A stretch of 64,000 bases of DNA. It comes from Euglena gracilis (Eukaryota). Every line of letters begins with the position of its first letter. The first letter of the stretch is position 1. The DNA lies in the NCBI GenBank assembly GCA_039621445.1, contig CP154954.1, forward strand, positions 49,703,847 to 49,767,846, in the 5' to 3' direction. Of this stretch, positions 1 to 62,102 are shown piece after piece. The notes under the pieces were generated by a model that was not told where the DNA came from, did no database searches, and was given only the letters and a program-made list of their open reading frames with translations. A program made the position numbers and the translations under genes.

Positions 1-3000
1 CCGCCGCCTCGCCCGCCATGGTCGCTGCGGCGGCCCCCACTTGCCGCTCCCGCAGCGCTTGGGCCTCCGCCTGTGCCGGCCGCCCCGTGTCACCGCCGGG
101 GATGGGGGCTCACAAGGCCCCGGGTCGGCCTCCAGGAGGATCGATGCAGCGATGTGGACCACGTTGACTTCGATGGCGGGTTTCCCGGCTGATCCACCGC
201 GCAGGATTCCAAGGGCGTTGACCCAACCTCATCGAGCCAATTCCTGACAACCCGAACACTAAAGCGGCTCAGTGCGAATGGGGTGGTTGGTGCATGACAC
301 CTGGTTGTGGGTGTGGGGGTGGGTGAGTGGGTGTGGGTGTGCGCGTGTGCAGGTGTGGGTGTGCGCGCTTGTTACTCGGTTGGGCCCAACGCCGCAGCAG
401 GCGGCACAGCACGGGGCGGGGCAGGGCAGCCATCTGCGACCGTAGCTCTTGGAGGGCGGCTTCCTTCCCCTCCACCACCAGCAGGGTCCCTCCGGCAAAG
501 GGGAACCCAAACCACCCCCACCAGGGGTTTTTCTTGAGACCGGGGGGAGGGCCTCCCCACCCACCCACCCCCTGGGGAGGCCCCCCGGAGGGGGGGGCTG
601 GGGGACCCACCACTTTCCCCGAAAAAATTGCTAAAATGCTAAAAATAGCACTTTTTTCAAAAATTTTCGGTGCCTTCGGCCCCGAGAAGTGAATGCCCCC
701 CAGGGGGGCCCCACAGAGGCGCTCGGCTGGACCCACCCACACTACCCCCCCCTCCCCCCCAGGGGTTCAAGACTAAAAAACACCCCTGACCCCCACCCAT
801 AGGACGACACCCACACGGACCCGCGGTGGGGGGCCCCGGGCTCCGCCTGGAGGTCCAGCAACTGCTGCTGCTTCGCCTGCAGTTGTCGGCAGGGCGGGAG
901 GGAGGGGGCCGGAAGGGGGCCCACCCGTTAGTGTAGGCTGCCCTCCATAGCCTGGCTGGGTCTCCCGGGCCTTCTGGTCCTCCTGGGACGCCTGCACCTG
1001 CGCCTGCAGTGCTGCGTGCAAACCGGCAGCGGATTTTGTGTTCCGCCTCCGTTCGGGTGGTATTCGGGTGACAAAGCCATCTGTGAATACCCACCATCTC
1101 CTCCTTCTGATGGACTGTACCAAAACTGGTTGTAATGTCACCAAACGTGTTGGCCAGGTAAGAAATCGCGGTGGTCGTTCCATCAAACAGCCATTAAACA
1201 ATATGTGTCAGCTGAAACAATGAGAACTGGTATTCCCATTTTAGCACAAGCATGCCGCCCTGTCTGCATTAGAGCAATGCAAGGCAAAAACGGAAACAAA
1301 GGGCGCTGCTGGGTTGGGCGCGATCTGCTCCTGCAAGGCAGCGGTGTCCCGGGTGTGCGTCTCCACTGCCCTTCGCTCCTCTAACTGCTGCTGTGCCAAA
1401 CCAGTGCCTTGTCACCTTCCTGCCCACTCAAAAAATGTCCCTCAAATCACAACCCAGAGCGGGGGCGGGTTAATGTTGCTGTGCATCGATTTCGGGTCAA
1501 AACCCATCGGGAGCAGGCTTCTTTTTAAGACCCGGGGGGGGGGGAGGGGGGTACCACCCCAGCCACCCAGCCCGGCATAGGAACCCCCAAAATTGGGCCG
1601 TCTGAGGGCATTTCCTAAAGGATTTTCGGCACTTCGCGCCAAAACCCATGCCTGGGCCTCTGGCCCAGGACTCCCCCCGCCCCCCCAGGGCCGGCACTGG
1701 ACCCCCCCCCTATGGGGGGTCTTCTGACTTAAAAAGAAGCTGGTCGGGAGATTTGGGAAAAGCAATTTCGGCAGACTTCCATCGTCACACTCATTCCACC
1801 CGGGCTTAAATATCTCCCCAGCAAGGGCAGACTCGTTGGCCGCATCGGCTGTATTTCAACGCGTGGGGCCACACGTTGCTTCTTTCCCATCAAGGTCTGG
1901 GGCACCGGCAAGGCCGCGGTCTGCCTCTCCCACCGCTCCGCCTCAAGCCGCAGCGCCTCCTCCCGCTCCCGCAGCGCCGCCGCCCGGCCCGCCAGCTCGG
2001 CCCGCTCGGCCTGCAGCGCCGCCTCCCGCGCCGCGACGGCCTGCCGCTGCTGCTCCAGCTCCGCCTCCTGGGGCCGGGCGACGGGGGTCTGTTCCCATGC
2101 CACTCTCGGGGTTCTAAGAAAGGGAATGGGCCCCCGGCCGACCCAGGGGGGGGGGTGCATTGCTGCTTGTGTGGTCGCATTGCCACGGGGCCCAAATAAC
2201 CACCACCCAAAGAACTGCTGTAATGTAATATAATGGAATTGTAAGGTTGAGATTTCTTGTGTGAGCATGAAATACAAGAAACTAAATATGTAATGGGTGG
2301 GTCATTAGACGCATGGCAAATACAACTTCCTGAGAAATGAGCTGATGAAAGTAAATGTGTACCACAAAGTTTTGGAATCACAAACCCGACGTCACAATCA
2401 GAGTATCAGAGTACCAGAACTGTCAAAGCAACACCGAAACCAAAAAAAATACACTTTGAATTTTTGAAAATGGCAGCCTCACACTAGTGCCCCTGCCTGG
2501 GGGGGGGCACTACCCCCCCCAAATAACCTGGGGTCCTTGCTCCTGGCGGGGGCTGAATAACTTGGCGGAGGGAGGGGCAAAAAAGATGGTTCCAGTAACT
2601 TGGCGGGGTCCTTTTTAGGCAAAATTCCTTTACGGCGCTGAAATAAGGGCCCAAATAACCTGGCGGGGGGGGGGGGCAAAAGTTGGTTCCAATAACCTGG
2701 TACCCCGCCAAGTTATTTGGGGGGGGGTTTAGTATGATGGGGGTATGTCAACCCCATACGTCATACAAGTGGGGCTGATGAGCGATTTTGGCCGATTCTC
2801 CCTCCTGTCCCACTTCCACTGGGGGAATTTCGTTTGTTTAATAGGGTCAAAATCAGAATATTTAGGCCAGAAATTTGGATCAAATCCCAAACATTAGGTG
2901 GCAAACGAGGCCAAACCTGTGGCCAAAAAAATCATCAAATTTAGACCAAAATTATAGCCTTAATTCCTAATCCTGAGCCTTTCCCTTATCATGAACCCCA

Positions 3001-8276: not shown

Positions 8277-8835
8277 CATACCATTGCTTAGTGACCCCCT
8301 GGGGGGGTCACTTTCCACTCCGAAAAAAACCAGTCAGTCACTTTTTCCGATAAAACCAGTCAGTCACTTTTCCCGATAAAACCAGTCAGTCACTGTACCC
8401 CCTCCCCCTGGGGGGGGGGATTGGCAACTCTTCAGGAGGCAATGAAAATTTGCCAAAAAGTCTCAAAAAATACAAAAAATTTCCGGCACCTTCGGCGCCA
8501 GGCCAGCCACTTTTGCATTTTCGGGCCTACCCACCCCGGGGGGGGGGGGGCTTTTGGCCAAAAAACCAGTCAGTCGCTCTGAAAAAACCAGTCAGTCACC
8601 CCCCGGGGGGGGGGGGGTATAGGCTCGAGCTTGAACGTTCGAGCTCAAGGCTCCTCTGATGGTAACCCCCCAGGGTCCCAGAATCTAGCAAAAAAAGATC
8701 GAGGATTGAGGATTTGTTGGGCTTTATCCAGGAGGTGCTTGTGTTTGACTGGAAGAACAATTAAACAAAGGCAAATGGAGGGCACTGGTTAGGTGTTAAA
8801 CAATGGTATCACACACCCCACCCACCCACACCCAC

Positions 8836-14023: not shown

Positions 14024-14376
14024 CATACAATTTTTTACCGACCCCTTGGGGGGAGGGGGGGTCACTCCACTTTTTGAAAAACCAGTCAGTCACTTTTTTT
14101 TGGGAAGCCAGTCAGTCACTACCCCACCCCCCCCCCCGGGGGGTCGGCCACCCAGGAAAACCAGCCACTTTCCAGCCACTTAAGGCCATTTTAGGCCAAA
14201 AAATTTTTCCCGGCGCCTTCGGCGCCGGGGTCACTCAAGCCACTTTTGCCCACCCCTGGCCGACCCCCCCCCCCAGGGGGGGGAGGGGGTCTGGGCCCAA
14301 AACCAGTCAGTCACTCTGAAAAAACCAGTCAGTCACCCACCCGGGAGGGGGGGGACAGTGCTTAAAAAATTGTCTG
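14024..14376. mobile_element. MITE, CATACAATT family (AACCAGTCAGTCAC internal motif)
   Basis: CATACAATTTTTTA...TAAAAAATTGTCTG; perfect TSD ATTCTGAC. Confidence 0.88.
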
Positions 14377-15446: not shown

Positions 15447-18173
15447 CTAATGCGCCTCATGCAGGAAGTGCTGGTGGATCTTCTCCTGCAGCAGGCAGCA
15501 GTTCTGCTTTGCGTCGCCAAGGAACATATTCGTGTTCGGCTTGTAGAACACCGGGTTGTCCACCCCCGCGTACCCAGTCGCCATCGAGCGCTTCAGAATG
15601 ATGCACTGCGGCCATGGGACGAACAACTACATGCACGCCAGGACGGTCCTTAACGGAAAAAATTTCCCGTCTCATCACATTCAATGAATAATACATAAGA
15701 AAGATGGACGAAAAGATGGCCATGCAAACAGGCTTCTTTTTAACCCCCCCCCACCCACTCACCCAGCCCGGTGCCGGATCCCCCCAAATCGGGTTGTCTG
15801 AGGGCATTTCCCAAAAAAAATTTCGGCGCTTTGCGCCGAAACCCATACCTAGGCCGGAACCCCCTCCCCCGGGTCTTCTGACTTGGAAAGAAGCGGCAAA
15901 ACGGGTCGACTTCGGGGAGAAAAAAGTGATTTCTGGCATCCTTGGACCATCGCCCATCCACCCAAAATGTCAAAAAATGTGTTTTTCGACTTTTCAATTT
16001 TTGACACCTTGGTCGTTCCTTTGGCCCAAGGGTGGTGGTCCTCAAGGGGCGGTCCTTAAAGAAAAAAAATTCCGTCCCTTGTGGACTGCCCTGATGCATG
16101 CACGGGTATTGCATTGCAATATGAGGAGCAATTTGTTTCAGACCCTGCACAAAACATAACGCGACAGCACCACCGACCACTGGCCGCGCTCAACTGGTTG
16201 CAACAACCAGCGCCAGGCGTCGCCGGACCACACCTTCTGTGCCTTCCAGACCTTGAGGACCGGCATCCCAGCGATGGGGGAGTTGGGGTCGTCCTCGGCG
16301 GCACTGTTGATCGTGTCGTTGGCCCCTGAAAGTGATTGCGTCGGGGAGCTTTGGCAATGCCACGGCGGAAAACATGCGCACCGCCACAATGCAACTGGTG
16401 AGGTGGCCAAGCTTCTTAAAATGGAAAAAAATGGCGGTGCAATTATCGGGTTTGGTTCCAAGCAGGGGTTTTCTTAAGGACCCCCCCGGGGGGGGGGGGT
16501 CCAGCCTCCGGCTGGCAAAAAAGCTGCTGGCTGGATTTGAGCTGCTGGCTGGACCCCCCCGGGGGGGAGAGGGGGGGGGGCCCGGTGCTGGAGGGGGCTG
16601 GGCTGGGCTGGGTCGACGGTAAACAAAATTTCCAATAATTTTTTGCCATTTTCGACATTTTGATGGATGGAGCTAGATCAAGGCTGGGGGGCTGTGATGG
16701 AGGAAGTTGTGATGAGGGGGGAAAATGCAGGGATAGGTGTGCTGGGCAGCCCAGTTGGCTAGTTGGCTGGCCGGCCTGTAGCCGGCTGGCCCGGCCTCCA
16801 GCCGGGCTGGACCCAACTTTATTTCACTTGACCCCCCCGGGGGGGGTGGCTCGCAGCCCGAGTTTGGGCTGCTGGCTGGATTTGAGCTGCTGGCTGGCTG
16901 GACCCCCCCCCCGGGGATGGGGTACCCTCCGGCTTAAGAAAACCCCTGGTTCCAAGGCATGGGAACTCACCGAATGCCCAGTGCCAGCATCTGAATCCTA
17001 ATTCTGAAATTGTCACGGCCGCAACATGAGCGCACATTCCGAACTGTATTGAACCAAATCCCACACCAATCACGAGGCTCACATCGGCGCCCTCGAACTG
17101 GTCGTTGATCTCGTCCATCTCGAACACAATGTCGTACGGGATGTTGGCCTCCGCCAGCAGCACGTTGAGCTGCCCGGGCATGCGGCCCGCGACTGGGTGG
17201 ATGGCGAACAGGGCCGCCCCCAAGCTTTGGACCGGTCCGAACCACACCCCGGCAGTGGACGAACGGAGCGGCTTCTTGTTACCCACCCCGGGGGGGGAGG
17301 GGGGTGCCTTGTGCTCTGGGGTGCCTGCCCACAGCAGGCACACCCCCCCCCCCAGGGGGGGTTGGTTTTGGACCCCGGTGCCTGCCGACCAAGCCAAATT
17401 TCTCTCTTGAAAATGGCCTTTTTCGGGCCCCGGCACCTTTGGCGCCAGGGGGTGTGCTCATGCTTGTGCTTACCGACCAGGGGGGGGGGGAGGGGGGGGT
17501 GGGTGCTATGGGGTGCCTGCCCCTAGCAGGCACACCCCCCCCCCCTGGGGAGGGGATAGGGGTCCGGGCCGGACCCAGAAAATTTTCATTGAAAATGGCC
17601 TTTTCCGGGCCCCTGGCGCCTTCGGCGCCGGGGTCGGGGGGGGGGGGTGCCTGCTAGGGGCAGGCACCCCCCAAAACCCTCCCCCGCCCCCCCCGGGGGG
17701 GGCGGATCGGGTGCTATGGGGTGCCTGCCCCTAGCACCCCCCCCCCCTCCGTGGGGTAGGCACCCGACCAAGCACAAGCCTGGGTGTGCTATAGCACTGT
17801 CCACCCTTTGTCCCTTCCAAGCCTCTCCCACCACCTTGTCCCCCCTCCCCACAAGCCTCCTTATCACCTCCAGTCTCTAAAACCCCCGACGACCAAACAA
17901 TTTCATAACGTTGTTTCACGTGCAACCGTTTGCAGTTCAGGGGGGTTCCACCTGAACATCCTGCCCCATATCCTAAAGTAACAACTCCCCGCAAATCTTC
18001 CAAATCCCACACATCACAACCACTCCCCCCAGCTCTGTGGCGGGCGAGACATCGACGCGGTGCTTGCGCAGGGTCTGGACCATCTCCGCCAGGGGGTACT
18101 GGCCCTGGGCCACCGCCAGGCCGTAGCCCGGGACGATGATGATCTTCTTCGCGTTGACCAGCTCCGAGACCAC
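15447..18173 (-). CDS. NNT: NNT exons 26-29, NADP(H)-binding domain III (18173-~18046; ~17209-17067; 16325-16234; 15605-15447)
   Basis: [43 protein letters not shown] motifs; TAG at 15449-15447. Confidence 0.93.
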
Positions 18174-21100: not shown

Positions 21101-24100
21101 TCGAGTGTGCCGGCTGGATTAGTGCCTACGGTTGTGAAAAACATGCGGATATCATAAAACTAGCAAAATTTGAAAGAATCTGGATGGGTGCGTTTTCGGC
21201 TCAAAAACAGTTTTTCTGGGTCCGGGAGGTAAAAAAACATCGTTTCCGGCAAAAAAAATTTTCGATTTTTTTCGACTTTTTTGGCCGAAAACGGCTGAAT
21301 TGAAAAGTGGAAAAAGTGTACAAAATGGCCGAAAATGGCCTAAATTGGCTAAAAAAACGCCCGTATCTCGGGCCAGGCGGGGAGTTGTGGGGAAACCAAA
21401 ATCCCAGTACATAGAGCGTTCCAAGGGCTTCAATTTAGGTATCTGGACATTTCCTTTGATTTTGCATCATTTTCGAAATTTTGGAAACATCGATTTTTTG
21501 ACCCCCCACCCCCTGAAAACGGCCAGAGAGAGAGAGAGAGAGAAATCAGAAGAGAGAAGTCGAACAGAGGGAAAAGTGCACAAAACGGCCATCTGCGCCG
21601 AAAAAGGCCGTATCTCGGGCTAGGCGGGGAGTTGCGGGAAAATCAAAATATCAGTTGATGGGGCGTTCCAAGGGCTTCAAATTAGGTCTCCGGAAATTTC
21701 AGTAGATTTGGCTTCATTTTGGAGATATTTTGAAATTTGACATTTTTTTTGGCCGAAATGGCAGAGTCCAAAGGGGGGGGGGGGCTTATCCAGGGGGGGG
21801 GGGTAAATCCTACCCAGTTTGGACCCCTTCGCGCGTGAATAACTTGGGCTTGGCGGGGAGTTGGGGGTCAAACCCAGGTGATTCGGAAACTAGAAATCCA
21901 GTCGCTCGCGACTGAAAAAAAAATGCCAGGAACGGGGCCGGGATCATGGTGATAATCCGTCGGTCTCCTGGTGGCCCCGACCCGGGGGGGGGGAGGGGGG
22001 GGTCGAGGGGGGGGTTTCGCCGGGCGTAAGCTTCGCTCTTACCCATAAAGGGATAAGAGCTCAGCGACCCCCCCCCTACCACCTACCTCAATACCGAAAG
22101 GCTTCCCATCCAACCCTAACCCTGGGTAGCCAAGGAGGGAACCCCCATCCCCGGGGCAACCCCAGGCAGGGGATGGGCAGCAGCATGTTGTTCTCCAGCA
22201 TGAACCCTGGGTAAGGAACGACCCGAGATCACACCAGCCAGAATGGCCAGATGACCACCTCTCCAACAATGCCCCATATCCACTTAACTCCCTTCCCCCC
22301 AGGGCTCTGGTTTGCTGAATCTGACGAAGGGGGGGGACTTGGAAAAAATCATAATTTTCAACATTCTTGTGCTCAACATAAGCCTTTGCCGTACATTTGA
22401 AGCGGAAAATGTCATTGTCCACAGCGCCTTGGATCGGGGATTCAGACGGGGCCTTAAATTGGAGGTTTTATTTTACCTTGAGTCATGGCCAGTTTCCCCC
22501 CCCCAGGGCCCCCAGGACCCCTTCTGCTCAGCACAGGACCCACTGACCGTGGAGTTCCGGGCCAGGGGTTTTTTTTAAGACCGGGGGGGGGGAGGGGGGT
22601 CCCCCCCACCCCCCCGCCCCCCTGGGGGGGCCCCCCGGGGGGGGGAGGGGGTCCTGGGGGACACACAAAAAATGGCCGAAAAAGCGCAAAACGTGCTAAA
22701 AAAAGAATTTTTCGGCGCCTGCGGCGCCGAAAAGTATATCCCACCCCCCTCCGGGGGGACCCCCCCCCCAGGGGGGGGAGTGCGTCCGGCGGACCCACCC
22801 ACCCTACGCCCCCTCCCCCCCCCGGGGGTCCAAACTTAAAAAATCCCTGTTCCGGGCACCTTCGGCGCCCGCTACCGGGGGGGGGGGGGCTACCACCCCC
22901 CCCCCCGGACCCCCCCGGCCTTCAAAATAACCTCATCTTGTGGGACAAAAATTTTGCCTAAGAGTTGCAATATGCATTTTTCCACATTATTTCTACCCCA
23001 CAGCTTTTTGCACAAGATATGGCATCTGATTCCGCCGCTTGCTTTGTTCTTCGGAACAAAACCCCCGTTCCACGATAGGCTGCTGCCTGCCCCCTGTGCG
23101 GGTGGACGGGTGATGACTCGTTTGGGAACACACAGCCATTCTCCGGGTTATGCATTGCGGTGTGCGTACGGCGGCGTCGTGGTCCTTGTCGTCGTCGAAC
23201 TCGGTGTCCACCGGCAAGGGGCTCGCGGCGCACATCACACACCATGAGCAGTGGTGCTATTGTTCGTGGACCACCCGTCCGGGACGGGGCTGTCACGAGC
23301 CCCTCGTGGATCCAGAGCACAGCCTATTTTTATTTTTTCGACCCGGTCTGGAGGTACCCCCGTCCCCGACCGGGGTTTGAACCTGGGTCGCTCGCATGGA
23401 CCGCACTGCGGGGGACCACTAGGCCGGGGGGTAGGGGCAATGGTTGTACGTGCCGTTCACTCCTCTTTCCGCCCCGGGCGGCGGTGGTGCCGTGATTGTT
23501 GCGTCAGAAAGAAAGCGGGTCAGAAAACTAAGGTTTATCGTAATCCGGGTCCCAGCCGTTGCGGCAGACCCGGGCGATGAAGGCCTGGAGGCCCTTCCAG
23601 CCCCCCCGATGACCACTTTGTGGTCCTGTCAGGTAAGGTGCCGAGAGAGGCAGAAGAAACACCACTCCTCGGCGTCGCACATGCCCCGCCGCACGCCACA
23701 GTACCCACCGACCGTGGAGTTCCGGGCGCCCGCTACTGGGGGGGGCTCCCCCCCCCGGACCCCCCCGGGCGTCAAAATAACCTCACCTTGTGCTACAAAA
23801 TTTTTGCCAGAAAGTAGCAGGAACCCCCAGGCCCCCCCCAGGACCCCCCCAGGACAGTGTCCTGGGGGGGGGGGGGAAACTGGCCATAAGCGTTGGACCT
23901 TTGTTCGGTCGGTCCAACCTCTGACACCGACAGTACTGTGCGTTTCGGGGAAACGATCAACGTTTTGGGTTGGGGCGGCGCACCCTCTGCCACGAGGGCC
24001 CACCCGGAGTAGGAGTTGAGCACCGTGATGACGACGGGCATGTCGGCGCCGCCGATGCTGTCCGTCAGGTGCCACCCCTCGAAGAACGCGATGGCCGTGG

Positions 24101-27100
24101 CGGAGCCCAGCATGATGAGCCTGGGGGAGAGGGGCCGGGGAGGGGAGGGGGCCACCGCTGGGGTGGCATTGCCGCCACAATTCTGTGAATGCAAAAAATT
24201 GACCCCCCCCTCCAGTAGGGGTTGGTCAGGGTTCTGACAGTCACGCTGCCCGACTGTCCAACTCACCGGACCAGGGAGTGGTGGAATGACCGCGGGGGAA
24301 GGGGAGGTCCAGATCCGTGGCAGGCAAGTTTGGACTTCCGGGGAAGCCTGCTTTTCAAGGGTTGGCCACGGGGGCTCACACGCAGCAGTGCACCCGCCCA
24401 CACAACAACACGGCCGCCACACCCAAACTGCATCTCCGGGGGCTGCGCCATGTACGCCACGAACAGCCCCGCCAGCCCCAGCCCCATCACGGAGTTGAGG
24501 AAGTCCCGGCCGGGGATCTCCAGCGCGTCCGACTTCCAGTTGCCGTTCAGCTTCGCGAACGCGACCAGCGAGCCCGTGAACGTCACGCCACCGATGACGC
24601 TGCCCAGGAAGATGGCCACCCGCTGCGGGCAGAGCTCGGCACTTGCGACGGGGGGGGGGGGCGCTGCTGTGTTTGATTTGCACCGGCTTTCTTCTTGCAC
24701 GGCGGCACGCATTTGGAGGCCGTGGGGAAAACTGACAGGGTCAGTTGTGCCCCTGCGGCTGAACCAATGCTGGGAGATCAAAACCCAAGAAAAAAAAGAC
24801 CAAAAAAGGAGGCAATAAGCGGACCTCAATTAAACAGTGAAACTGTTGACGGAAAGAAAGGCGGGGGGCAGTCAGGATCACGTTGTGGCTGGCGCTGGTC
24901 TGATGTTGCCTGTGTCAGTGAGGGCAAAGGTGTTCACCTGTGAGAAGAAAAAATAAATTAAACAATACAATAATAATGATAATCCCCCCTCGTAACAGGG
25001 CAGCAAATTTAGGTTTGCTTTTCTTTCCATCAAATTCAAGTACCCAGCACTCCCAGCACAACCCAGCACTCCTGCAATGCAGCTGAAGCCAGGAACATTT
25101 GGTTGCATTTATTACAGTGCCTTTTCGAAGAAAGATGAAGCTCTTTGTCCAGTGGGTCCCAAACAGGCTTCTTTTTAAGACCCCCCGGGGGGGGGTCCCC
25201 CCCACCTACCCAGGGTGGCGTGGGACCCCCCACCCCAAAATCGGGCCCGTTAGAGGCAATTTTCAAAAATTTTCGGTGCTTCGCACAAAAAGGTATACCC
25301 GGCGCCTCCGGCACGGGACCCCCCCCTTAGATGCACTTTGGCTTCTGTCTGGTTTAAGGCCTGGCGCTGCACAGACATTCATTTAGTGTGGTTCACAAAA
25401 TACGTGTGAACCACAAATTTTTTTTTGGTGTCCACAGGTGAACCACAAAATTTTTTTTGGTGTCCACATGTGAACCACAAATTTTTTTTTGGTGTCCACA
25501 AGTGAACCACAAAAAATTTTTTGGTGTCCACAAAAAAGTTTGTTGCCACAAATCTTGATTGAGTATCGGAAAAAAATTAAGTTTTACAACTAAAAGCGGA
25601 TTGATCTTGAAAAACCTCAGCCAAATTGTCACCTTGGCTCCGGCTCAATCCATAAATTGTGGCAGCGAACCACACCCCCAGGCTTGTATGGGAATCTCGG
25701 AGGGGGGGGGGGGGGGGGGACCCCCCTCCAACCTCAAATTTTTGGTCACCGAATCTCCTCAGTTTCCGGGTCGAAAAAATCGAAAAAATAGAAGCAAAGG
25801 GGTGTGGGGGGGGTATGGGAGGGGGTCGCTGACCTCTTAACCTTTCAAAAAATTGCTGTAAGTAACCGTAAATTGCAGGGGTGTAACTTTCAAATTTATG
25901 AAATTTGCAATGCCAGTCTTTTCGGACATCCATTACGTGCAAGTCCCATAAAGAGCTCAACACTATTCAAACCTGGTACCCCCCCAGTTTCGGAAGGGGG
26001 TCCCCCACCCCTCCTCCTCTGCGGAGGAAAAAAAAATCTTCCGGCGCAAAGCGCCGGGTGTGTATTTTAGGACCCTCTTGAGGCTCAATATGAAAATTTG
26101 CACCCAAATGCATGGGTTCCGGGCCAAAACCGGGGGGGGGGGTCGAAAACACACACATTTTCGGTTCAAAAAAAGTTCTTCCGGCTCCGGGAAACATCGT
26201 TTCGGGCAAAATTTTTTCGATTTTTTTTCGAATTTTTCGACCTTTTCAACCCAAAAATGGCTAAATCAAAACAGGCCAAAACTGTCAAAATGGCCCAAAT
26301 TGGCTGAAAAATGGCCGTAACTCGGGCTGGGCGGTGAGTTGCAGGAAATCAAATACCTTTCCTTTGACTCCCCACCATTTTCGAGAACTTTTGGGGAAAT
26401 CGATTATTTGACTCAAACGTTTGGTGTCCACATGTGAACCACAAATATTTTTTTGGTGTCCACAGGTGAACCACAAAAAAAATTTTGGTGTCCACAGGTG
26501 AACCACAAATTTTTTTTTGGTGTCCACACGTGAACCACAAAAAAATTTTTGGTGTCCACAGTGAACCACAAAATGTCAACCTTGGTGTACCACACTAAAT
26601 GAATGTCTGGCGCTGCATTCCGCTTCTGGCCCTTTCTTCGGAGCAACTCCCAATAATTGTCCGACCCCATATTCACTGGGACTTCAAACTTCCGTTTTGT
26701 GTTTCCCTTGCCCTTCCCCTCCCCCTTGGGTTTTCGGCTCCCCTTTCTGGCTGCTGCTGCTGCTGCTTCTGTTGCTGCTCGATTTCGTTCCCAAGAGGTG
26801 CTCGGGGTGGTAAGGGGCCTACTCCTCCACTGCGTGCCGGCGGGTACCGGTGTCACCTGCAGTGGGCCCTTTTTACCACCACAGCCCGCCGGGTCCCCCC
26901 GGGAAGGAAATGCTTTCCGCTGCTGCTTGCTGGGCTGCTGCTGTTGCTGCTGCTTCCCCGACCCTTTGGACCCACCCTGGGCTCTTTGCTCTTGGTGTGG
27001 TTCCCAGTCGTTGTGTTGCTGTCTCCCGTTGCTGTTCTCAATGGGATGGGCATACGGGCATGAGGTGGTCCTCCACCAGCATCCCATCCCATACTTGCAC

Positions 27101-30100
27101 ATGAATTGTTCCCCCGTCGGTCTGCCCCGCCCTCCCCATGGGGAGCCCCCCTCTGTGGGCTGCACTTTTTGGGTGTACCCCCACCAGGCCCGGGCCGGAC
27201 CTCCCCCCCCCCCCGAGGGTCCGGCCCGGGCCCACCCCCCCCAGGGGGGGGGGGCAGGAGACCCCCCCCCGGGGGGTCTCCTGACATAAAAAGATGCCTG
27301 GTCCCAAATCAACTGGTTTCATTCTCTGTGACAGCTGCAACCATAAAATTCAGCCGGGGCCACTTGCGTCCGTCTCCCTGCGGTTGGGGGTGGCAGGGAA
27401 GTGGGGGGAGGGAGCGAACGGAGCGGCCCCGCCCACACACCTCCTCCACGAACTGGGCGAACGCCACCACCACGGCCGCCAGCCCCACGACGGAGTGGAA
27501 GCCGGCGACCAGTTGGGGCAGGGCCGTGATCCCCGCCAGAGGTCCGTTTTAAATCCCGGGGGGGGTGTCCATCCCTGCATCCATCCCCCAGGGGAAGGCA
27601 AGGGGGGGGGCGTACCCACCCGGCCTGACCATCCCCCCAAGGGGGGGGGGATGGCCGGCTGGGACCGACCCGCCCCACCGCGGGTCACCGCTAAAGAACC
27701 TCTGAGCTCCACCCGGTGGGCGATGCAGAGCCCGATGGCCCCGCCCGCCGTCATGGCTAACCCCAGTTGCAGGTACGTCAGGGGGCTCAGCGTGCTGCAG
27801 GGGGGCAGGGCGTGGTGAGGCCAAGGATGGGCAGATCCAATATTGTCCTCAAACCTGCCCATACAGCTTGTTCACAAGCTATTTGCCCTCTTGTCCCTGC
27901 GCCGCATTTTCATTTCAGGGTTTTAAACCCTGTGGTGGTTTTGTGACACCACATTCCGCAAACCCACACGTAGGCCAGGGGGGGGGGAATAATTGATATC
28001 GGAGGCCTTCGGAAAAATTGCGGAAAAATTGCGGAAAAATTGCGGAAATTGCGGAAAAATTGCGGAAAAATTGATATCGGGTATACACATTTCTGTCTGA
28101 GGGGACTTAGAAATTTTTCAATTGTGAGGTTCAGAACACCGCAACACCCACGTCGATGCAGGCGAGCACAAATCAACACGCTTGATGTTTTTTGCACAGG
28201 TGGGACGCACCCAATTCTGTAACCAGTGGTGCACCTGTGAGAAAAATTGGTAAACTGGGGGGAAAAAAACAACAAAACACAATGGCACACCTATTGATCC
28301 ATTTGAAGAATGGCTTGAACTCATTGCATCTTCCATCTTCGGTGGTGGGGGAAAAATTCTGCGGGAAAAAAAAATGGGAAAAAATTGCGGAAAAATTGCG
28401 GAAATTGCGGAAAAATTGCGGAAAATTGCAGAAAATTGCAGAAATTGCGGAAAATTGCGGAAATTGCGGAAAAATTGCGGATCAATTCCCCCCCCCTGCG
28501 TAGGCATACGTAGGCGCAAACACTATATTCGGTTGAGGAGACCTAACATGATGCCGGTATCCAATTGCTTGGCCTCATGAAGGAAAATGGGCCGGTTCCT
28601 ATAGCACATGGGGTTGTACCCCCCCCCCCCGACAATGCATGCCCAGCACACCGGGAGAGGCTGACGAGGGTGGTCAGGACGCCGACATAGATGCCCACCT
28701 TGCCCAGGCTGTTGCCGAGGCGGGACGTCTCCTGGGTGGACAGCCCCGCGATGGACAGGATGCAGAACAGGGAGGCCACCAGGTACGACAGCTGTGGGGA
28801 GGGGGAGGGAAGCGGTGGGACTGGCGCCACCGCGCAACAATGGCCGTGGCGCAGACTGCCGGGTGGCCGCGCTCAGCAGGTATCGCAGTCTTCAGCAACT
28901 TGAGCCAGACCAAAAACGAAACCTGCGTACAAATGGGTGCAACCCTGCCTCCTGGGCGTAGATTCACTTGGGGGACATTTTACCCTGGGATAAAACCCAC
29001 CCAGCCACTATTTTTTTTTGAAACTACCAACCCACAACCCCCCTCCCAAAGGGGTCAAACCACCCACCCACCCACCCACCCACCCCCTGGGGGGTTCCTC
29101 CAGGGGGGAGTGGCCCTGGGTGAGTGGGTCCTAACCACTCACTTTTCCCCGAAAATGGCCAAAAACCGCAAAAAATGCTAAAAATAGCACCTTTTCAAAA
29201 TTTTTGGTCCCTTTAGCGCCAAAAAGTATATCTCAGCCCCCCTGGGGGACCCCCGGGGGGGGATCGGCCAGACCTACACATCCTACCCCCCCCCCCGGGG
29301 TTCAAGACAAAAAAACCACTGGCCCCAACACACCCACGCACTCTCGAAGACCCACCTGGAGAGAGGGGATCTGTGTCAAGCTCCTGGGACAGCCGTACCT
29401 TGGTGACTCGTGCCAACAAAACAAAACAAAACAGGATTCCCGTTAGAAATCAGCAGGAGAAAGACTGAAAATGGTTGCTAAAAATAACTTCGTCACTACT
29501 TGTCATTGTGTGGCTGCGAGTGTGTAGTGCCTGCATGGGTTGATATTTTTGGGAAATGCTTCTGCTTCAAAAATAGGATGAACTCCACAAGGGCTGGAAT
29601 TTCAATGGGACATTGCTTTGTTTTTGCCCAGACATAGCGAGGTGCAATGATGTGCGTGGGGGAGAAAATGATGGCCAGGGAAGGGCAGTCATCCCCAATT
29701 TTTGGTCTCCGGTGGGGTCCGGTGGGATCATACAATTGCTTACCGACCCCCGGGGGGGGGGGGAGGGGGGTCACTCCACTTTTTTAAAAACCAGTCAGTC
29801 ACTCATTTTCAAAAAACCAGCCAGTCACTACCCCCCCGGGGGGGGGGTCGGCCACTCAGAAAAACGGCCACTTTCCAGTCACTTTAGGCCATTTTAGGCC
29901 CAAAAAATTTTTCCGGCGCCTTCGGCGCCGGGGTCACTCAAGCCACTTTTGCCCACTCCTGGCCGACCCCCCCCCACTCTGAAAAAACCAGTCACCCACC
30001 CCCCCAGGGGGGGGGGTTGGTCAGTGCTTAAGCAATTGTCTGGGTGGGATCTGGTGGCTGTCCTTGCCTGCTGATGGCAAGGTAGGTGAACGATGGATCT

Positions 30101-46392: not shown

Positions 46393-46603
46393 TGTATGTA
46401 TGCATGTATGTATATATGTATGTATGTGTGTATGTATGTATGCATGCATGCATATGCGAGCATGCATGCATGCATGCATGCATGTATGTATGTATGTATG
46501 TATGTATGTATGTATGTATGTATGTATGTATGTATGCATGTATGCATGCATGCATGTATGTATGTATGTATGTATGTATGTATGTATGTATGTCTGTATG
46601 TAT
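46393..46603. repeat. (TATG/CATG)n tetranucleotide microsatellite
   Basis: Direct inspection. Confidence 0.95.
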
Positions 46604-47458: not shown

Positions 47459-47908
47459 CATACATCTCTCTAAGGACCCCGGGGGGGGGTTGCTGGGCTA
47501 GGGCTAGAAATTTGGGCTGGCTAGCCCGCCCCCCCCCCCCCCCGGGGGGGGCTGGACCCCGGCTGGACCCGAACCGGGGCGAGCTGGACTGAAATCGGAA
47601 AAATGCCCAAAAATGACCTGCAGAACACAGTTTTGAAAAAATGATGCATCTGAAACCCCCCAAAAATGCCCCAAACGCCCCCCAAACCCCATTTTTGGCC
47701 ACTTTTGAACACAGTTTTTCAAAAAATTTCGGCGCTTTGCGCCAAAAAATTTTGGGCTGGACCCCCAAAAAGGGGGCTGGCTAGCTGGGCTAGCAGCCCC
47801 CCCCCCCCCCGGGGGGGTGCTGCTGCGGCTGGGCTGGGCCCAAATCGGGGCTGGCTGCAGCCGCCCCCCCCCCCCGGAAGGGTTCGCAAAACCTTAGAGA
47901 GATGTATG
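47459..47908. mobile_element. MITE with CAT...ATG termini
   Basis: Perfect 17-bp TIR CATACATCTCTCTAAGG; perfect TSD TTACCAAC. Confidence 0.9.
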
Positions 47909-52034: not shown

Positions 52035-52406
52035 CAGGGTTCGATATAAGGACAGGTGGGGGGGTGGTCCAGACCCCCCCCCCTGCGGGCCAGGGGGGGG
52101 GGGCGGCGGACCCCCCCCACCTAAACAGTGGTCTGGGTGACCGAAAATTTTTGCCCCCCCAAAACGACCAAAAGTGCCATTTTTGGGTACTTTTTGGGCA
52201 AAAATGTGTCAAAAATGCAAAAAAATTTTCGGCGCGAAGCGCCGGAGGAAAAAATTGACCCTTTTTGGGGGGGGTCCCGGGTACCCCCCGAGGGTTGGTC
52301 CGGACCCCCCTGGCAGGTGGGGGGGTCCGGACCCCCCCGGCGGGCCAGGGGGGGGGGGGACACCCCCCCACCTAAACCATGTACACCCTCCTTATATCAA
52401 ACCCTG
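52035..52406. mobile_element. MITE, same family, inserted in the end of a TA-class element
   Basis: TIR CAGGGTTCGATATAAG/CTTATATCAAACCCTG (15/16); perfect TSD GGGGGGAT. Confidence 0.88.
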
Positions 52407-56563: not shown

Positions 56564-59500
56564 TCAGCAGGACACGAGGTTGAGGTCGTGGAAGATGTCG
56601 ATGAGCACGCTGTCCAGCCCCAGCACCGACTGGAGCAGCCGCCGCGCCGTGGAGTACTGGGGAACGAACTCCCCCGCAGGGCCCCGCTGCGCGTCCAGCC
56701 CCCCCCCCCCCTTCCCCCCCGTGCCCCCCGCCTGTGCCGGCACAGGACGGGCGACTTTATGCGGCGCTGCGGGAGAAGGGGGTGCTCGGCACTCTGCACC
56801 CAGTGCCAAACACCTTGTGGGCTATGGCTTGCCTGGTGAGCTACGGGGTACATGACTGCCCGTAACCGGCACTCATGCGACCTTTCACGACAAAGAAGCC
56901 CGGCACAGGTGTCCCGCATTCGTGTTGCGGGGAGCTGCGGGGCAGGGGATGGTCACGTATTGGGCCAGTGCGAGGATTGCTGCGGTTCCTTTTAGTTGGG
57001 CTCGTCCTGAAGCTTCCCTTAAAAACCCTGGGGGTTCTGCAGGTTCTGGTTGTGCAAATATGCAAGGAAAGGCAAAAATATAGACCAAAAAAATGATGAA
57101 AATGGTGAAAAATATTGACAAAAATTTGGTCTCTGGGAAATTTTGGGCAAAATGAGGAATTTTTCAAAGTTGTAAAAAAAAATGTAAAAAAAAATGTAAA
57201 AAAATCCATCAGAAATCGAAAAATTCAGAGAAAAAATTTATCCCTTTTACTCTCTTGCGCGATTTACATGATTTCAAAAAATGGATTCACGTGATTTTAC
57301 GTGGCAAAACCATGACGGCCCCAAAATGGCCAAACAATGACCTAAAATTACTTAAATGGACCAAAATGGCCTGAAATGCCACATAATATATAATATATAT
57401 TTGCTCATAACAACCAAACTAAGCAACGTTGACCCAAAAGGGTACAAAGGGGCGAAACATGAGAGCAGTCACCCAGCATCGCCCAGCGTTGGAGAGCTTG
57501 TCCTCTGGGGGGGGTCTGCTTCTTCCGAGCTAAAAAGAAGTTTCCTGGTTTTCAACTAGGATCCAAGGATGGGGATAGGATGGGGATCATCGGGGGGGGG
57601 GGGTTGAAAAAGACAGGCTGATGAAGCAAACAGCTGGCTTCAGCGATGCCCTGCTCTTCCACATCTTTCCCAGTGACCTCCTTGCTTGAGGGCTGACAAC
57701 AGCGCCATACTCCAGAGTTCATGGGGAGAGGGGATTTGGGCAGGCACATCAACCCCAAAGAGCGATTCTGGGTTTAAACCCCGGGATGATAGATTCACTT
57801 CGTGACCCGCGGGGGGGGGGGGCACTTTTTCCCGGGCCCAAACCCACCCACTCACTTTTTTCGAAAACCGCCCACCCACCCTGCCCGGGGGGGGGGGGGG
57901 GAAGGGGTCAGCCACCCCCACTGAAAATTCAGCCAAAATCGGTCAAAAAAAAGCCGAAAAAATTCCCAGCCCGACCTTCAGCTGAGCAAAAACCTGACCC
58001 ATGGCGCACCCCACCCAGGGAGGGGGGTCCCAGGGCCACCCACCCACTCTCGAAACCCCCCACAGGTGAAAAATAAATCAATACTTGGGGACTCGCAGGA
58101 CTTACGAGGGGCTGGAGTGGAGTGGGATGGAATGGAGTGGCGGGTAAACTGCCATTTCAACACGAAACCCATTAAAATGCGGTTCCAAAAAATGCAAAAT
58201 GGGGCAAACACTTGTGCAAGACGAAGCCCCCCACCCCTGATTTAGCCGATGGCAGGATCAAAAACCTCACTTTTGCTAAAACTCCAAAATGGGAACAAAG
58301 GACGAATGGGGCCCAGAAACCTGAAATGCAGAAATGGGAGCCACTAACCCCCGCCCAATGCTTGTTTCATGTTTCCACAACTGGCGACGCTTCCCCACAG
58401 TGTTGGTGGGGAGATGCACAAAAATTTGGACCATGTGCAATTATTTTGCCTCTGACTGTGTCATTTTCAGCCGCCAAAGAAAACCCCCATTGCTTTTAAT
58501 TTTGTCCCCCCAAGCCAGTTTGTAATTTTGGAAGAAAACTCTATTCATTCTCCCCTCCGCCAAAATCAAGCGTCCCGATAACCCCTACTGAAACCCATTT
58601 TCTTTTTAGCACAACTTATCCAACACAATTGTCGAGGGGGTTTTTGGACTTGGAGGTGGACGCTGTACGCCAGCATTCCTCCTCCTCCTCCTCTGCCAGC
58701 GTTTTCCGCATCGACTCTGCAAACTTCTCAAACTCTGCGGTGAGGTCCGGGGACGCTGCTGGCATGACGTGCTGGGGGGCGACAGGCATCGGCAGCACCA
58801 CGGTGGATTCCTCCGCTCCCTCAGCTGGTGTTGTCGACAGGCGGTTGCGGTCAGTTTTGGAGGACAGCTTCCAGGAGCGAGGGGGGGGATGCAACATGAA
58901 CTCACACACAAACAAAAAACGCGACAAAAAATGCAAAAAGTGAAGAAAAAAACAACACAAAAAGCAAAAAAAAACAACGCAAATTGCATGAAATATCCTT
59001 CAGGAGCCCCCGAGATGTAATACACTTTTCAACTGGATTTTGTTGCCCAAAACAAATGTAAAAATGACAAAAAAAATTGACATAATTTTCGGTCTCGGGG
59101 GGGGAAATCGGGGCCAAAACGAGGAATTATTTCAGAGTTAAAAAAAATTCCAGGACAAATCCAAAAATCGACAGAAAAAAACACGCGAATTTTTCCAAAA
59201 TCAAAAAAAAACACAAAAAAACACAAAAAAAACAATGCATTTGTGTTTCCCTCCCTGGCAGGAGGCTACTGCTGCAGGTGGGGGGATGGGCACCCAACAA
59301 CCTGCCCATCCCCTGGGAGATGGAGGAGCAGGCTTCTGTCTGAAACCATCAAGCCCTCCAACGTGGGACTTGGGGGGGGGTGCCCCCACCCCAAAATTGA
59401 AGGCATTTTCCAAAGAATTCTCCAGCGCTTCGCGCGGCAATCCCGGCATGCCCTGGCATCCCGGAAGCAACCGCGTGGCTGCTCCGGCGTCGGGGATGGT

Positions 59501-61339
59501 GATGACCGGCCCGTCCGGCCGGGACACCACGATGGGGCCAGGGCCGGCCGACCCACCACCCCCCGAGCCCGAGGGGACCGGAGGGGCGGCCCTGGGCGGG
59601 ATGCAGCTTGTTGCACTTGGCGCCGAACTTGCACTGGCCGGTCAAGGCCCACACCTCGCAGATCTCCCGCCCGGCCTGCGCCTCCACCGCCTCCGACAGC
59701 TGCTGGTAGCAGGGTTTTTTTTTTAAGACCGGGACGGGGCGTCCACGACTAAAAAAACCCCTGGCTGGTACACTGTGAGGTCCGGGTGGACGAAGCGGCA
59801 TTGGGACGACTGCGGCCGGTGCATGACGCACTTTACTCCCTGCGTTGGGATTTGTCAGCCGAATAATTGAGATGAAACCCCGCAAAAAAAAAACCTTAAA
59901 AACTGCATTTTGGGCATTTTTTTTTTTGACCCCCGGGGTCCGCTGAAATAAAGTTGGAGCCCCAGGCTGGACAGAAAAATTTTTTTTCGGCACTTCGTTA
60001 ATTTTTTTTATTTTAACTTTTTTTTTATAATTTTTAACTTTTACTTTTAATTTTTTTTAAAAAGGTAAAAATAGCAATTTTTTCAAAAATTGGCAAAGCG
60101 GAGAAAAATTTTCGGTCCTGCCCGGCTTTGCTGGGCTGGCCCCAACTTTATTTCAGTGGACCCCCGGGAGGTGCAGCCTGGCTGGGAGGTGCTGCCTGAA
60201 CCCCTCCCCAGGGGTTGGGTCCTGCGGCGTGAGAAAACCACTGCTGGAGGGGTGGTATAAAATTTTCAGTGACGAAAGAAGACTTCCATAAACAAAATAC
60301 GCGCTGGAAAAAGGATCGGCGAATGATTTCGTGCGACCAACACCCGCTGGGGAGTGACCCATGCCATGCCAGCCTCAGGGCGCTCTCGCGTGCACTTCCC
60401 CTTCAGGTAATCCGGCCCATACAACGGCCTGGCATCGTGATGGCGACGGCGGACCAGCGCAGCACTATCTGGGGACTAAAGATCCTTTGCTCTGACACTT
60501 TGGCATGTCAGGCAAACCCACCCAAAACCCAGCAGAGCGACCTCAGCTCAGTTTCCTGCCAGGTTTTGGAATCAGGGAATTTCTTAAGCACCAGCTGGCC
60601 AGCTGTGATGACTGGACCCCCCAGGGGTGGGGGTACGGGGGGGGGGGGGGGCCCACCTCCCCCCCCCCCCCCGGCCCTTGGCCTGGTAAATGGTTCAAGG
60701 TAAAACCAGAAAACTGACTTAGGGGAACCAAATATACATGCCAAGAACCTTGGCAGCCATGTGGAAAAGGACAAAGGCCAACTTTAGGGGGACCAAAATT
60801 TGTATGTAAAGATCAGGGGGGGGGGCAAGAGCCAGGGGGGTATTGGTTAATACTGCTGGACCCCCCCGGGGGTCTGCAGCCCGGCTAGGAGCTACTGGCT
60901 GGAAAAAAAATACCCCCCATCGGGTTAGGGTGGAATGGCTGCTGTTTGGAATGGCTTGGTTCAAAGCTGTTGCCGGAGGGAGTGGTTGGAACCCCTCCAG
61001 CCAAGCCAATCTAGGGGGTGGAGGTGGGAACACTTAAACAATGCGTGAACGAACTGAGCGGTTTTCTGCCGGGGGGGGGGACCAAAAAATCTTCCCCAAA
61101 CAGCTGCAAAAAAATGCGATTTAAGATGACAAAAGTTGTGGATAAAATGCTTTAAGAAGTTTCTGGCATGAAAGCGCGACTGGCGAGACTGGTCCCAGTA
61201 TCAATTCTGGGTCTCACACAGCGGCCTTGCTGCAGGCCGTGGTATGGGTGAGGCAGACGTTCAGTCCAGCATCGGCTTTGGCCTTGCGACCTCGCTTCGT
61301 CACCGTGGCAGTGGGGGCGTTGGCAGTGGTGGGGGCCAT
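56564..61339 (-). CDS. Tandem CCCH zinc-finger protein, multi-exon; 3' exons only partly resolved
   Basis: Join 61339-61250, 60412-~60382, ~59804-59767, 59704-59598, 59533-.. gives MAPTT..NVCLDYLKGKCTRE(x)QCRFVHPDLTVYQQLSEAVEAQAGREICEVWALTGQCKFGAKCNKLHPIVVSRPDG (two CCCH fingers). Probable later exons about 58870-58650 (DLTAEFEKFAESMRKTLAEEE) and about 56690-56564 (..DIFHDLNLVSC*, GC3-rich). Confidence 0.75.
59710..59763. mobile_element. 54-bp mini-MITE forming a non-conventional intron (59705-59766)
   Basis: Ends CAGGGTTTTTTTTTAAGAC...GACTAAAAAAACCCCTG; flanks GCTGGTAG/GCTGGTAC (7/8 TSD); termini match elements 522-788 and 22563-22849. Confidence 0.88.
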
Positions 61340-61692: not shown

Positions 61693-62102
61693 CCCCCCCC
61701 CCCCTATGTCCAACGACCAGTAACCTCTGGCCTCCGACCGGGGGGGTGGTCGTTGGACATAGGGTAGTGACCAAAAAGGTGTCCTCTGACCGGGGGGGTG
61801 GTCGTTGGACATGGGGTCAAAAAAAAAGTTGGTGGGCACCCGGGTCCCTAACCACCCAAAAATGCCCAATTTTCCCTTCCGGCGCTTCGCGCCGAAAATT
61901 TTGGGCAATTTTGACAAATTTTTGTCCAAAAAGTGTCAAAAATGGCATTTTGGCCAAATTTTTGGCCAATTTTTGGGCAAAATTTTTCGTCCCGGCGCTT
62001 CGCGCCGGGACCAAAAATTTGGTCAAACCTCCGAAAAGGTGTCCTCCGACCGGGGGGGTGGTCATTGGACATAGGGGGGTCGTTGGACATAGGGGGGGGG
62101 GG
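61693..62102. mobile_element. TA-flanked MITE, near-identical family member of 54179-54585
   Basis: Same TIRs and body; TA flanks. Confidence 0.85.

Follow-up and report, generated by a model that had tools for sequence, protein, structure and literature searches.

In a window of 64,000 nucleotides from Euglena gracilis (contig CP154954.1 of assembly GCA_039621445.1, positions 49,703,847 to 49,767,846 of the forward strand; coordinates below count from the first letter of this stretch), a CCCH zinc-finger gene is read from the minus strand, and the exon that links its two fingers is interrupted by a very short copy of a MITE, or miniature inverted-repeat transposable element. The explanation that we favour, and consider probable, is that a hAT-like MITE inserted into this finger-linking exon and that 62 nt, comprising the element and one copy of the target that it duplicated, are removed from the RNA as a nonconventional intron of the kind described from euglenids.

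The element extends over 54 nt (59710..59763, plus strand) and is an internally deleted copy whose ends, CAGGG..CCCCTG, form an inverted repeat with 11/12 positions in agreement and align with the termini of larger copies elsewhere in the window. Read on the plus strand, it begins with CAGGG-T10-AAGACCGGG and finishes with GACTAAAAAAACCCCTG; it points the same way as the larger copies found at 522 and 22563, antisense to the zinc-finger host gene. On its two sides stand the copies of the target-site duplication, GCTGGTAG at 59702..59709 and GCTGGTAC at 59764..59771 (both in plus-strand reading), which are identical at 7/8 positions. A repeat search around 59710-59763 returned an exact 7-nt repeat at a spacing of 62 and inverted arms of 13 nt with 92% complementarity. 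An earlier note, made from the letters of this DNA alone, had described a 54-bp element at 59710-59763 with termini in common with 522-788 and 22563-22849, and a target-site duplication matching at 7/8 positions around it; the coordinates and the common termini were borne out, and the duplication was recovered both by direct reading and by the repeat search. The duplicated target reads GTACCAGC in RNA sense. In that sense, the first five nucleotides of 59764..59771 close exon 3 and the last three serve as the 5' spacer of the predicted intron; the first five of 59702..59709 form its 3' spacer, and the last three begin exon 4.

The precision of the insertion can be judged from related genes. 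A search with the downstream open frame gave 17 proteins at E<=0.001 among 23 candidates, all of them derived from Euglena transcripts. These 17 proteins come from two Euglena transcriptome sets in EukProt (identifiers beginning EG_transcript_ and GGOE01), are 106-416 aa long and have CCCH zinc-finger Pfam domains; 13 of them were inspected as a sample of paralogues, and nine were aligned. All 13 of the 13 Euglena paralogues inspected read ...YQQLS... without interruption (...YQ/QLSEAVEAQ..., the slash marking the site of the element), and Y49, Q50 and Q51 are invariant in the nine-protein alignment. Because all the inspected paralogues are uninterrupted here, the 62 nt made up of the element and one copy of the repeat break into a conserved exon. 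Of the two open frames in the window, the upstream one closes with ...TVYQ and the downstream one opens with (Y)QQLSEAVEAQ, the TAC triplets at 59770-59768 and 59708-59706 being codons of the former and the latter, respectively. Excision of 62 nt (54+8) yields ...TVYQ/QLSE..., with zero residues gained or lost; if the 62 nt are retained, a stop is reached after 13 further codons (open reading frame 59723..59854). Codon arithmetic and translation thus agree with the earlier proposal that removal of the 62 nt restores the frame and that retention disrupts it. As read from these alignments, the continuity of the paralogues is a protein-level empty site, by proxy, with GTACCAGC in RNA sense as the target. 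At the level of sequence, these comparisons show insertion of a member of the MITE family into a conserved coding exon, with duplication of 8 bp at the target.

Knock-ins into an E. gracilis exon have defined the signal of nonconventional introns as 5'-N3CDG-/-CH'GN5-6/R, the last slash being the exon border (Nomura et al. 2025, PMC12501133). The rule calls for a 5' spacer of exactly 3 nt and a 3' spacer of 5 nt (6 being tolerated), the first exon base is preferably a purine, and pairing just inside the motif is essential; 5/5 fully artificial 50-bp sequences that followed the rule were spliced from a foreign exon. Across the element, the RNA sense reads exon..GTACC/AGC CAGGGG...CCCTG CTACC/AGC..exon, so that the 62 nt (59705..59766, minus strand, predicted as the nonconventional intron 3 of the host gene) hold every element of the code, namely N3=AGC, CAG, CTG, N5=CTACC and, as the first exon base, R=A (59704). 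Inside the CAG/CTG motif, 12/14 positions form Watson-Crick pairs in an ungapped register. The RNA fold of 80 nt over the intron has -26.6 kcal/mol (z -2.8), and 1/200 shuffles was equally good; the plus strand of the element gives a fold z of -1.37. GT-AG or GC-AG ends were found at none of the 8 equivalent slide positions of the 62-nt intron, seven slid positions of which yield an identical mRNA. The lack of a GT donor that had been pointed out earlier is thus upheld (0/8 slide positions with GY-AG ends), and the likeness to a pattern of about 3 nt, a CAG/CTG stem and 5-6 nt holds against the code of PMC12501133. To judge by its letters, the element plus one duplication copy fits the published code exactly; transcription of the host gene and removal of the 62 nt from its RNA are what we infer. 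Of the earlier claim that the MITE acts as an intron, the structural half is upheld and the RNA half is a prediction.

The 54-nt element belongs to a family that is dispersed in the window. One copy of 267 bp (522..788, plus strand) is flanked by a perfect 8-bp duplication, ACCCCCAC, and another of 287 bp (22563..22849, plus strand) by the perfect 8-bp duplication TTCCGGGC, the latter inside an intron of a transhydrogenase gene. Both start CAGGGG-T(n)-(A/G)AGACCGGG and end ...ACT(T)AAAAAA..CCCTG, and the end signature of the family can also be written CAGGGG-T(n)-AAGACCGG. A related copy of 486 bp (16463..16948, minus strand) has ends CAGGGGTTTTCTTAAG.., an inverted repeat of 12/12 and GTTCCAAG on both sides as a perfect duplication. 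As it lies inside a plain, conventional GT-AG intron (17066-16326), some copies of the family are not introns in their own right. When the 54 nt are aligned with the termini of the 22563 copy, 23/27 positions (5') and 24/30 positions (3') agree; for the 522 copy the figures are 21/27 and 25/30, respectively. On these alignments, the element amounts in essence to the two ends of a full copy brought together. Four occurrences of the core (A/G)AGACCGG were counted in the window, three of them being the family copies at 522, 22563 and 59710. Among the dispersed copies with common terminal inverted repeats in the window, three thus have the same 24-nt end and one is related; all are small (54-486 bp) and without coding capacity. 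The duplications differ from copy to copy, with 8/8 positions matching at 522, 16463 and 22563 and 7/8 at 59710.

Chance was weighed in two ways. The 24-nt pattern has three matches in the window compared with 0.11 expected, and none of 100 shuffles reached three, a test that is circular because the pattern was composed from these very copies; the 11-nt end motif alone was not enriched in the window (11 matches against 7.4 expected, with 10/100 shuffles reaching 11). An independent test came from a generic scan for CAG...CTG ends 30-1500 bp apart with an inverted-repeat match of >=10/12, in which the adjoining 8-mers were required to be >=7/8 identical. Flanking 8-bp repeats were present in 7/123 such inverted-repeat pairs, the 59710 element included, and in 0/123 when the flanks were moved outward by 8, 16 or 24 nt, from which it follows that the window holds a population of small inverted-repeat elements with 8-bp target-site duplications. 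In 4/7 of these elements, one side allows the flanking repeat to be extended by a further base, so that 8 versus 9 is not fully sharp and "8" is the conventional reading. The recognisable family of terminal inverted repeats that the earlier note had proposed is therefore a multi-copy one with inverted-repeat ends and 8-bp duplications, as both the terminus alignment and the generic scan show.

MITEs of the hAT superfamily make an 8-bp duplication and have short inverted repeats, with ends such as CAGGG in maize Ac/Ds. The family described here resembles them in the 8-bp duplication of 7/7 generic-scan elements and in its CAG...CTG termini, and differs in that no transposase partner was seen in the 64-kb window, as judged by open reading frame length only (the longest stop-to-stop frame is 315 aa). 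We call the family hAT-like, an assignment for which duplication length and end sequence are the whole basis because no such partner was seen.

The host gene was mapped by tblastn of Euglena proteins against the window, which gave a single minus-strand gene with seven exon blocks, running from ATG to stop and matching the paralogues. Exon 1 (61250..61339), placed by tblastn with Euglena transcript proteins, has its ATG at 61339 and ends ...GLNVCL. Exon 2 (60383..60412) encodes DYLKGKCTRE, and exon 3 (QCRFVHPDLTVY.., 59767..59803) holds the last C-x3-H of finger 1. Exon 4 (59598..59704) contains the second CCCH finger, of the form C-x8-C-x5-C-x3-H, for which Pfam zf-CCCH scores 28.5 bits at a cut-off of 20.5. 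Exon 5 starts with IVVSRPDGPVITIP... (59465..59533, the 3' end not being fixed), the core of exon 6 (..DLTAEFEKFAESMRKTLAEEEEEECW) covers 58667..58828 with approximate borders, and the last exon, exon 7 (..LGLDSVLIDIFHDLNLVSC, 56564..56735), has an approximate 5' border, its coding part ending at 56567 and its stop lying at 56566-56564. All of these are on the minus strand. Spliced, exons 1-5 give a stop-free translation that is identical to P0001 at 86/102 aligned positions and matches P0002-P0005 at 78/110 to 82/101 positions. Introns 5 and 6 allowed 73 and 13 in-frame solutions, respectively, under loose rules, among them a GT-AG solution that runs from 58668 to 56767 and has a C-rich tract.

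In the paralogues P0004 and P0005, Pfam finds zf-CCCH_10 plus zf-CCCH. Finger 1 lies at about positions 25-47 and finger 2 at about 61-85 of the paralogues, and the element falls in the linker between them. The earlier picture of two CCCH fingers joined in one frame by excision thus stands in substance; what did not stand is that finger 1 lies next to the element as a whole, since it is spread over exons 1-3 and only its last C-x3-H is in the element-adjacent exon. A scan of metagenomes for relatives of the gene gave 20 loci, all of them distant (26-61% over short segments), and none was usable as an orthologous empty site. Upstream of the gene, at about 61693-62100, there is a further MITE-like stretch with the long inverted ends C-run-TATGTCCAACGAC ... 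GTCGTTGGACATA-G-run and internal copies of the same motif.

The neighbouring introns of the gene, all on the minus strand, allow intron 3 to be compared with others in the same transcription unit. None of the four introns pinned by homology (introns 1-4) has GT-AG ends. Intron 1 (60413..61249, 837 nt) has a 3-nt spacer, a CATACC.../...GTATG stem (that is, CAT...ATG ends), a 5-nt spacer and then G, and in this 3/5 register 13/14 positions are Watson-Crick pairs. Intron 4 (59534..59597, 64 nt) reads GCC-CAGGGCCG..CGGCCCTG-GCCCC followed by A, with 11/14 pairs, and agrees with the code. Both have the 3/5 spacer geometry found in intron 3; the fold of intron 4 was no better than that of its shuffles (z 0.38). 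Intron 2 (59804..60382, 579 nt) has CTG...CAG ends, with 8 Watson-Crick and 2 GU pairs out of 14. The 8-mers flanking intron 3 are identical at 7/8 positions, and those flanking introns 1, 2 and 4 at 2/8, 1/8 and 4/8. As intron 3 is the only one of the four to keep a flanking repeat, this comparison supports its being younger than its neighbours. The "recent" gain suggested in the earlier note is upheld in this relative sense, and the comparison gives no date.

From these features, a course of events can be proposed. A short internal-deletion derivative of a hAT-like MITE with CAGGGG...CCCCTG ends entered the exon linking the two CCCH fingers and duplicated the 8-bp target GTACCAGC (RNA sense). 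Owing to the CAG...CTG ends, the pairing inverted repeats and the 8-bp (=3+5) duplication, the pre-mRNA would carry the full nonconventional signal, with a 3-nt spacer, CAG, a stem, CTG, a 5-nt spacer and a purine being in place from the moment of insertion. If the RNA were cut 3 nt before the element begins and 5 nt after it ends, the element and one duplication's worth of sequence (54+8=62 nt) would be lost, and the original message, ...TVYQ/QLSE..., would be restored. The sole extra condition would be that the sixth base of the duplication, read in RNA sense, is a purine; it is A here, and the opposite orientation would give T.

Several observations weigh against this proposal. None of the 17 family proteins is the product of this gene copy, the best of them (P0005) reaching 97% over exon 4 and being much lower elsewhere, and a search for fragments of this copy among proteins of 26-84 aa found nothing. 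Since no product of this copy was among the proteins searched, its expression is putative. The shares of sampled words were 0.13-0.15 in putative RNA runs and 0.70-0.80 in DNA runs, values that carry no weight in this argument. The codon 59638-59640 in exon 4 encodes L (WALTGQC) where 9/9 aligned paralogues have M (WAMTGQC), and DLTVYQ has V where the five closest paralogues have A, substitutions that are compatible, as far as the letters go, with a drifting gene copy. The minimum-free-energy fold of intron 3 shifts the CAG/CUG triplets a few bases off the textbook pairing. Intron 2 fits the code poorly, with spacers of 3/7 or 4/6, which means that the code is not universal. Finally, only 1/4 family copies in the window is located at an exon junction.

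It could be, then, that the insertion was merely disruptive, with the element retained in the RNA or the gene copy silent, and that the locus is a young pseudogene truncated after finger 1. The missing transcript among the family proteins and the shorter ones, the unique residues at otherwise conserved positions and the stop after 13 codons upon retention would all suit such a fate, and the existence of many paralogues would make the loss of one copy tolerable. However, the other exon blocks are all open and conserved up to the C-terminal ...DLNLVSC, and on its reading frames the gene is otherwise intact apart from the element. The code that was enough for splicing of artificial 50-bp inserts (PMC12501133) is complete in the 62 nt, and absence from the protein collection is weak evidence because that collection seems to hold only two Euglena transcriptomes. 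We consider this alternative unlikely.

Far less probable still is removal of the element by the conventional spliceosome, from GT at 59773 to AG at 59703 (71 nt) or at 59700 (74 nt). Either excision would stay in frame, since 71 and 74 are both 2 mod 3 like 62, and GTGTAC...CTACCAG/CAG can indeed be read; conventional 3' sites in Euglena favour CAG after a C-rich tract (PMC11170887), and the last 12 nt here are pyrimidine-rich. However, the message would lose V-Y-Q or V-Y-Q-Q and with it the Y and Q that are invariant in 9/9 aligned paralogues, a run of A instead of a pyrimidine tract lies upstream of the 3' site, and 0/4 pinned introns of the gene have GT-AG ends. It is likewise very improbable that repair of a double-strand break with captured filler DNA made both the intron and the 8-nt repeat, its likeness to the other copies being convergence on the CAG...CTG signal: a recently gained nonconventional intron with eight-nucleotide direct repeats has been ascribed to such repair (PMC4770533), and the 11-nt terminal motif by itself is no rarer than chance, but the matching stretch is much longer than the splicing signal (23/27 and 24/30 positions agree, among them AAGACCGGG and GTCCA..ACTAAAAAA), and the other copies, which are found in non-coding DNA or within larger introns, are each flanked by a perfect 8-bp repeat of their own, the signature of transposition.

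The window also holds a gene for NAD(P) transhydrogenase (41433-15465, minus strand), which was mapped with a Eutreptiella protein and spans 26 kb with at least 21 exons. The junction solver found a GT-AG solution for 14/20 mapped introns, the rest being non-GT-AG or unresolved. For intron 16 of this gene (20028-19948, minus strand, 81 nt), which is pinned by ..GALLT/WIMC.., no GT-AG solution was obtained. A perfect 8-nt repeat, CTGCTGAC, stands on both sides of it, and it can be slid to 11 equivalent positions; with about 9/12 the inverted repeat is weak, and the minimum-free-energy fold has no terminal stem. To judge from its letters and junctions, this intron can be placed beside intron 3 of the zinc-finger gene as another non-GT-AG intron that has an 8-nt repeat, though a less clean one. 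Four of the seven generic-scan elements (16463, 22563, 25372 and 29676) lie inside larger transhydrogenase introns. With respect to the GT-AG intron 16326-17066 that hosts the 486-bp MITE, the open reading frames P0045 and P0046 on long public contigs read ..LVIG-ANDT.. uninterrupted and are 98% identical over the upstream exon, so that related genomes or copies may lack this intron. As a species check, a transhydrogenase exon did not discriminate, its best matches being 98% to one protein named Eutreptiella and to two open reading frames on long contigs. The element at 25372-26609 (1238 bp, inverted repeat 12/12, CAGACATTCATT, perfect 8-bp repeat GCGCTGCA), also inside a transhydrogenase intron, belongs to a different family. 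Two other elements with CAGGG...CCTG ends are located at 29676-30070 (flanks 7/8) and 52035-52406 (flanks 8/8), the first of which encloses an element at 29729-30042 and may represent a nested insertion.

A looser scan, for an 8-mer plus an inverted repeat in generalised form, gave 90 matches compared with 41-123 in inward-shifted controls; as tandem and palindromic repeats fill the controls, it was used to pick clean elements and not as statistics. Tandem TGCA/TGTA repeats at 46400-46600 and a cluster of palindromic repeats with TGCGCGCA at 8800-11200 both swamp generic inverted-repeat scans. Four clean elements with perfect 8-bp repeats and CAT...(C/A)TG inverted ends emerged (14024-14376, 17459-17782, 29729-30042 and 47459-47908), an example of this end class being CATACATCTCTC, with an inverted repeat of 12/12. 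The ends of intron 1 of the zinc-finger gene (CATACC...GTATG) resemble this class.

The idea that nonconventional introns stem from MITEs is not new. It has been in print since 2013 and was proposed by Milanowski et al. 2014 (PMC3935182), at a time when, according to that paper, no transposable elements had been identified in euglenid genomes; it was repeated in 2016 (PMC4770533), 2018 (PMC6221363), 2024 (PMC11282704) and 2025 (PMC12501133). Here, by contrast, a definite family that makes an 8-bp duplication can be pointed to, and its free copies stand beside one in an exon. According to PMC12501133, nonconventional introns make up 71.8% of Euglena agilis introns, and the Discussion states that their origin "remains unclear". 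The 62 nt described here share with those introns the spacers, the CAG/CTG motif, the stem, the exon purine and the lack of GT-AG ends; their length is within the range of the spliced 50-bp artificial introns, and they can be slid by virtue of the flanking direct repeat. They differ in being recognisably a copy of a dispersed repeat family with non-intron copies, and their splicing is predicted. The strain-specific intron 4 of gapC in Euglena agilis, which has eight-nucleotide direct repeats and for which Milanowski et al. 2016 (PMC4770533) proposed repair of a double-strand break, is similar in being a nonconventional intron with an 8-nt direct repeat that was judged recent. That case has population evidence (the intron is absent in other strains) and cDNA, but no repeat family; ours has a repeat family and is known from the genomic letters.

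Introners, reviewed in PMC11282704, are families of DNA transposons from which spliceosomal introns arise in Micromonas, Aureococcus, dinoflagellates and other organisms. As in the course of events proposed here, insertion turns an inverted-repeat element into an intron, with part of the signal coming from its target-site duplication. In contrast, introners are spliceosomal with GT/GC-AG ends and have many intron copies, whereas here a nonconventional route is proposed and one of the four window copies is at an exon junction; the hallmark of introners, many introns of different genes derived from one element, was not seen in the window. PMC3935182 also cites a case in which maize Ds acted as a de novo intron. 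The words hAT, MITE and intron are absent from the text of the note on the chromosome-level genome of E. gracilis (PMC11252322), and a full-text literature search (supplements and most subscription journals lying outside it) turned up no report in which a particular family is named, an 8-bp (hAT-like) class is assigned or the 3+5=8 link is drawn. The MITE-origin idea is thus known, and the concrete family and the link between the 8-bp duplication and the 3+5 spacers, found in no paper searched, may exist in print.

The source and the removal of euglenid nonconventional introns have been an open question since the 1990s, and this locus offers a concrete example for the old idea of a transposon origin, with free copies and an exon copy of one family together. 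A broader proposal, which we put forward tentatively and with slightly more doubt than belief, is that the 3+5 spacer geometry is the RNA-level mirror of the hAT-like 8-bp duplication, so that nonconventional splicing would be a precise RNA-level reversal of such insertions and the family a still-recognisable source of introns; the CAT...ATG end classes, represented by intron 1 of the zinc-finger gene and by CATACA...TGTATG elements, would be included. If this were true, every copy that landed in an exon, whichever way round, would be a clean intron from the start, provided that the sixth base of its duplication is a purine. The equality of the 8-bp duplication with the 3+5-nt spacers is a quantitative link that makes the hypothesis testable genome-wide with existing Euglena assemblies and RNA-seq, and the splicing machinery of these organisms may be tuned to one transposon superfamily.

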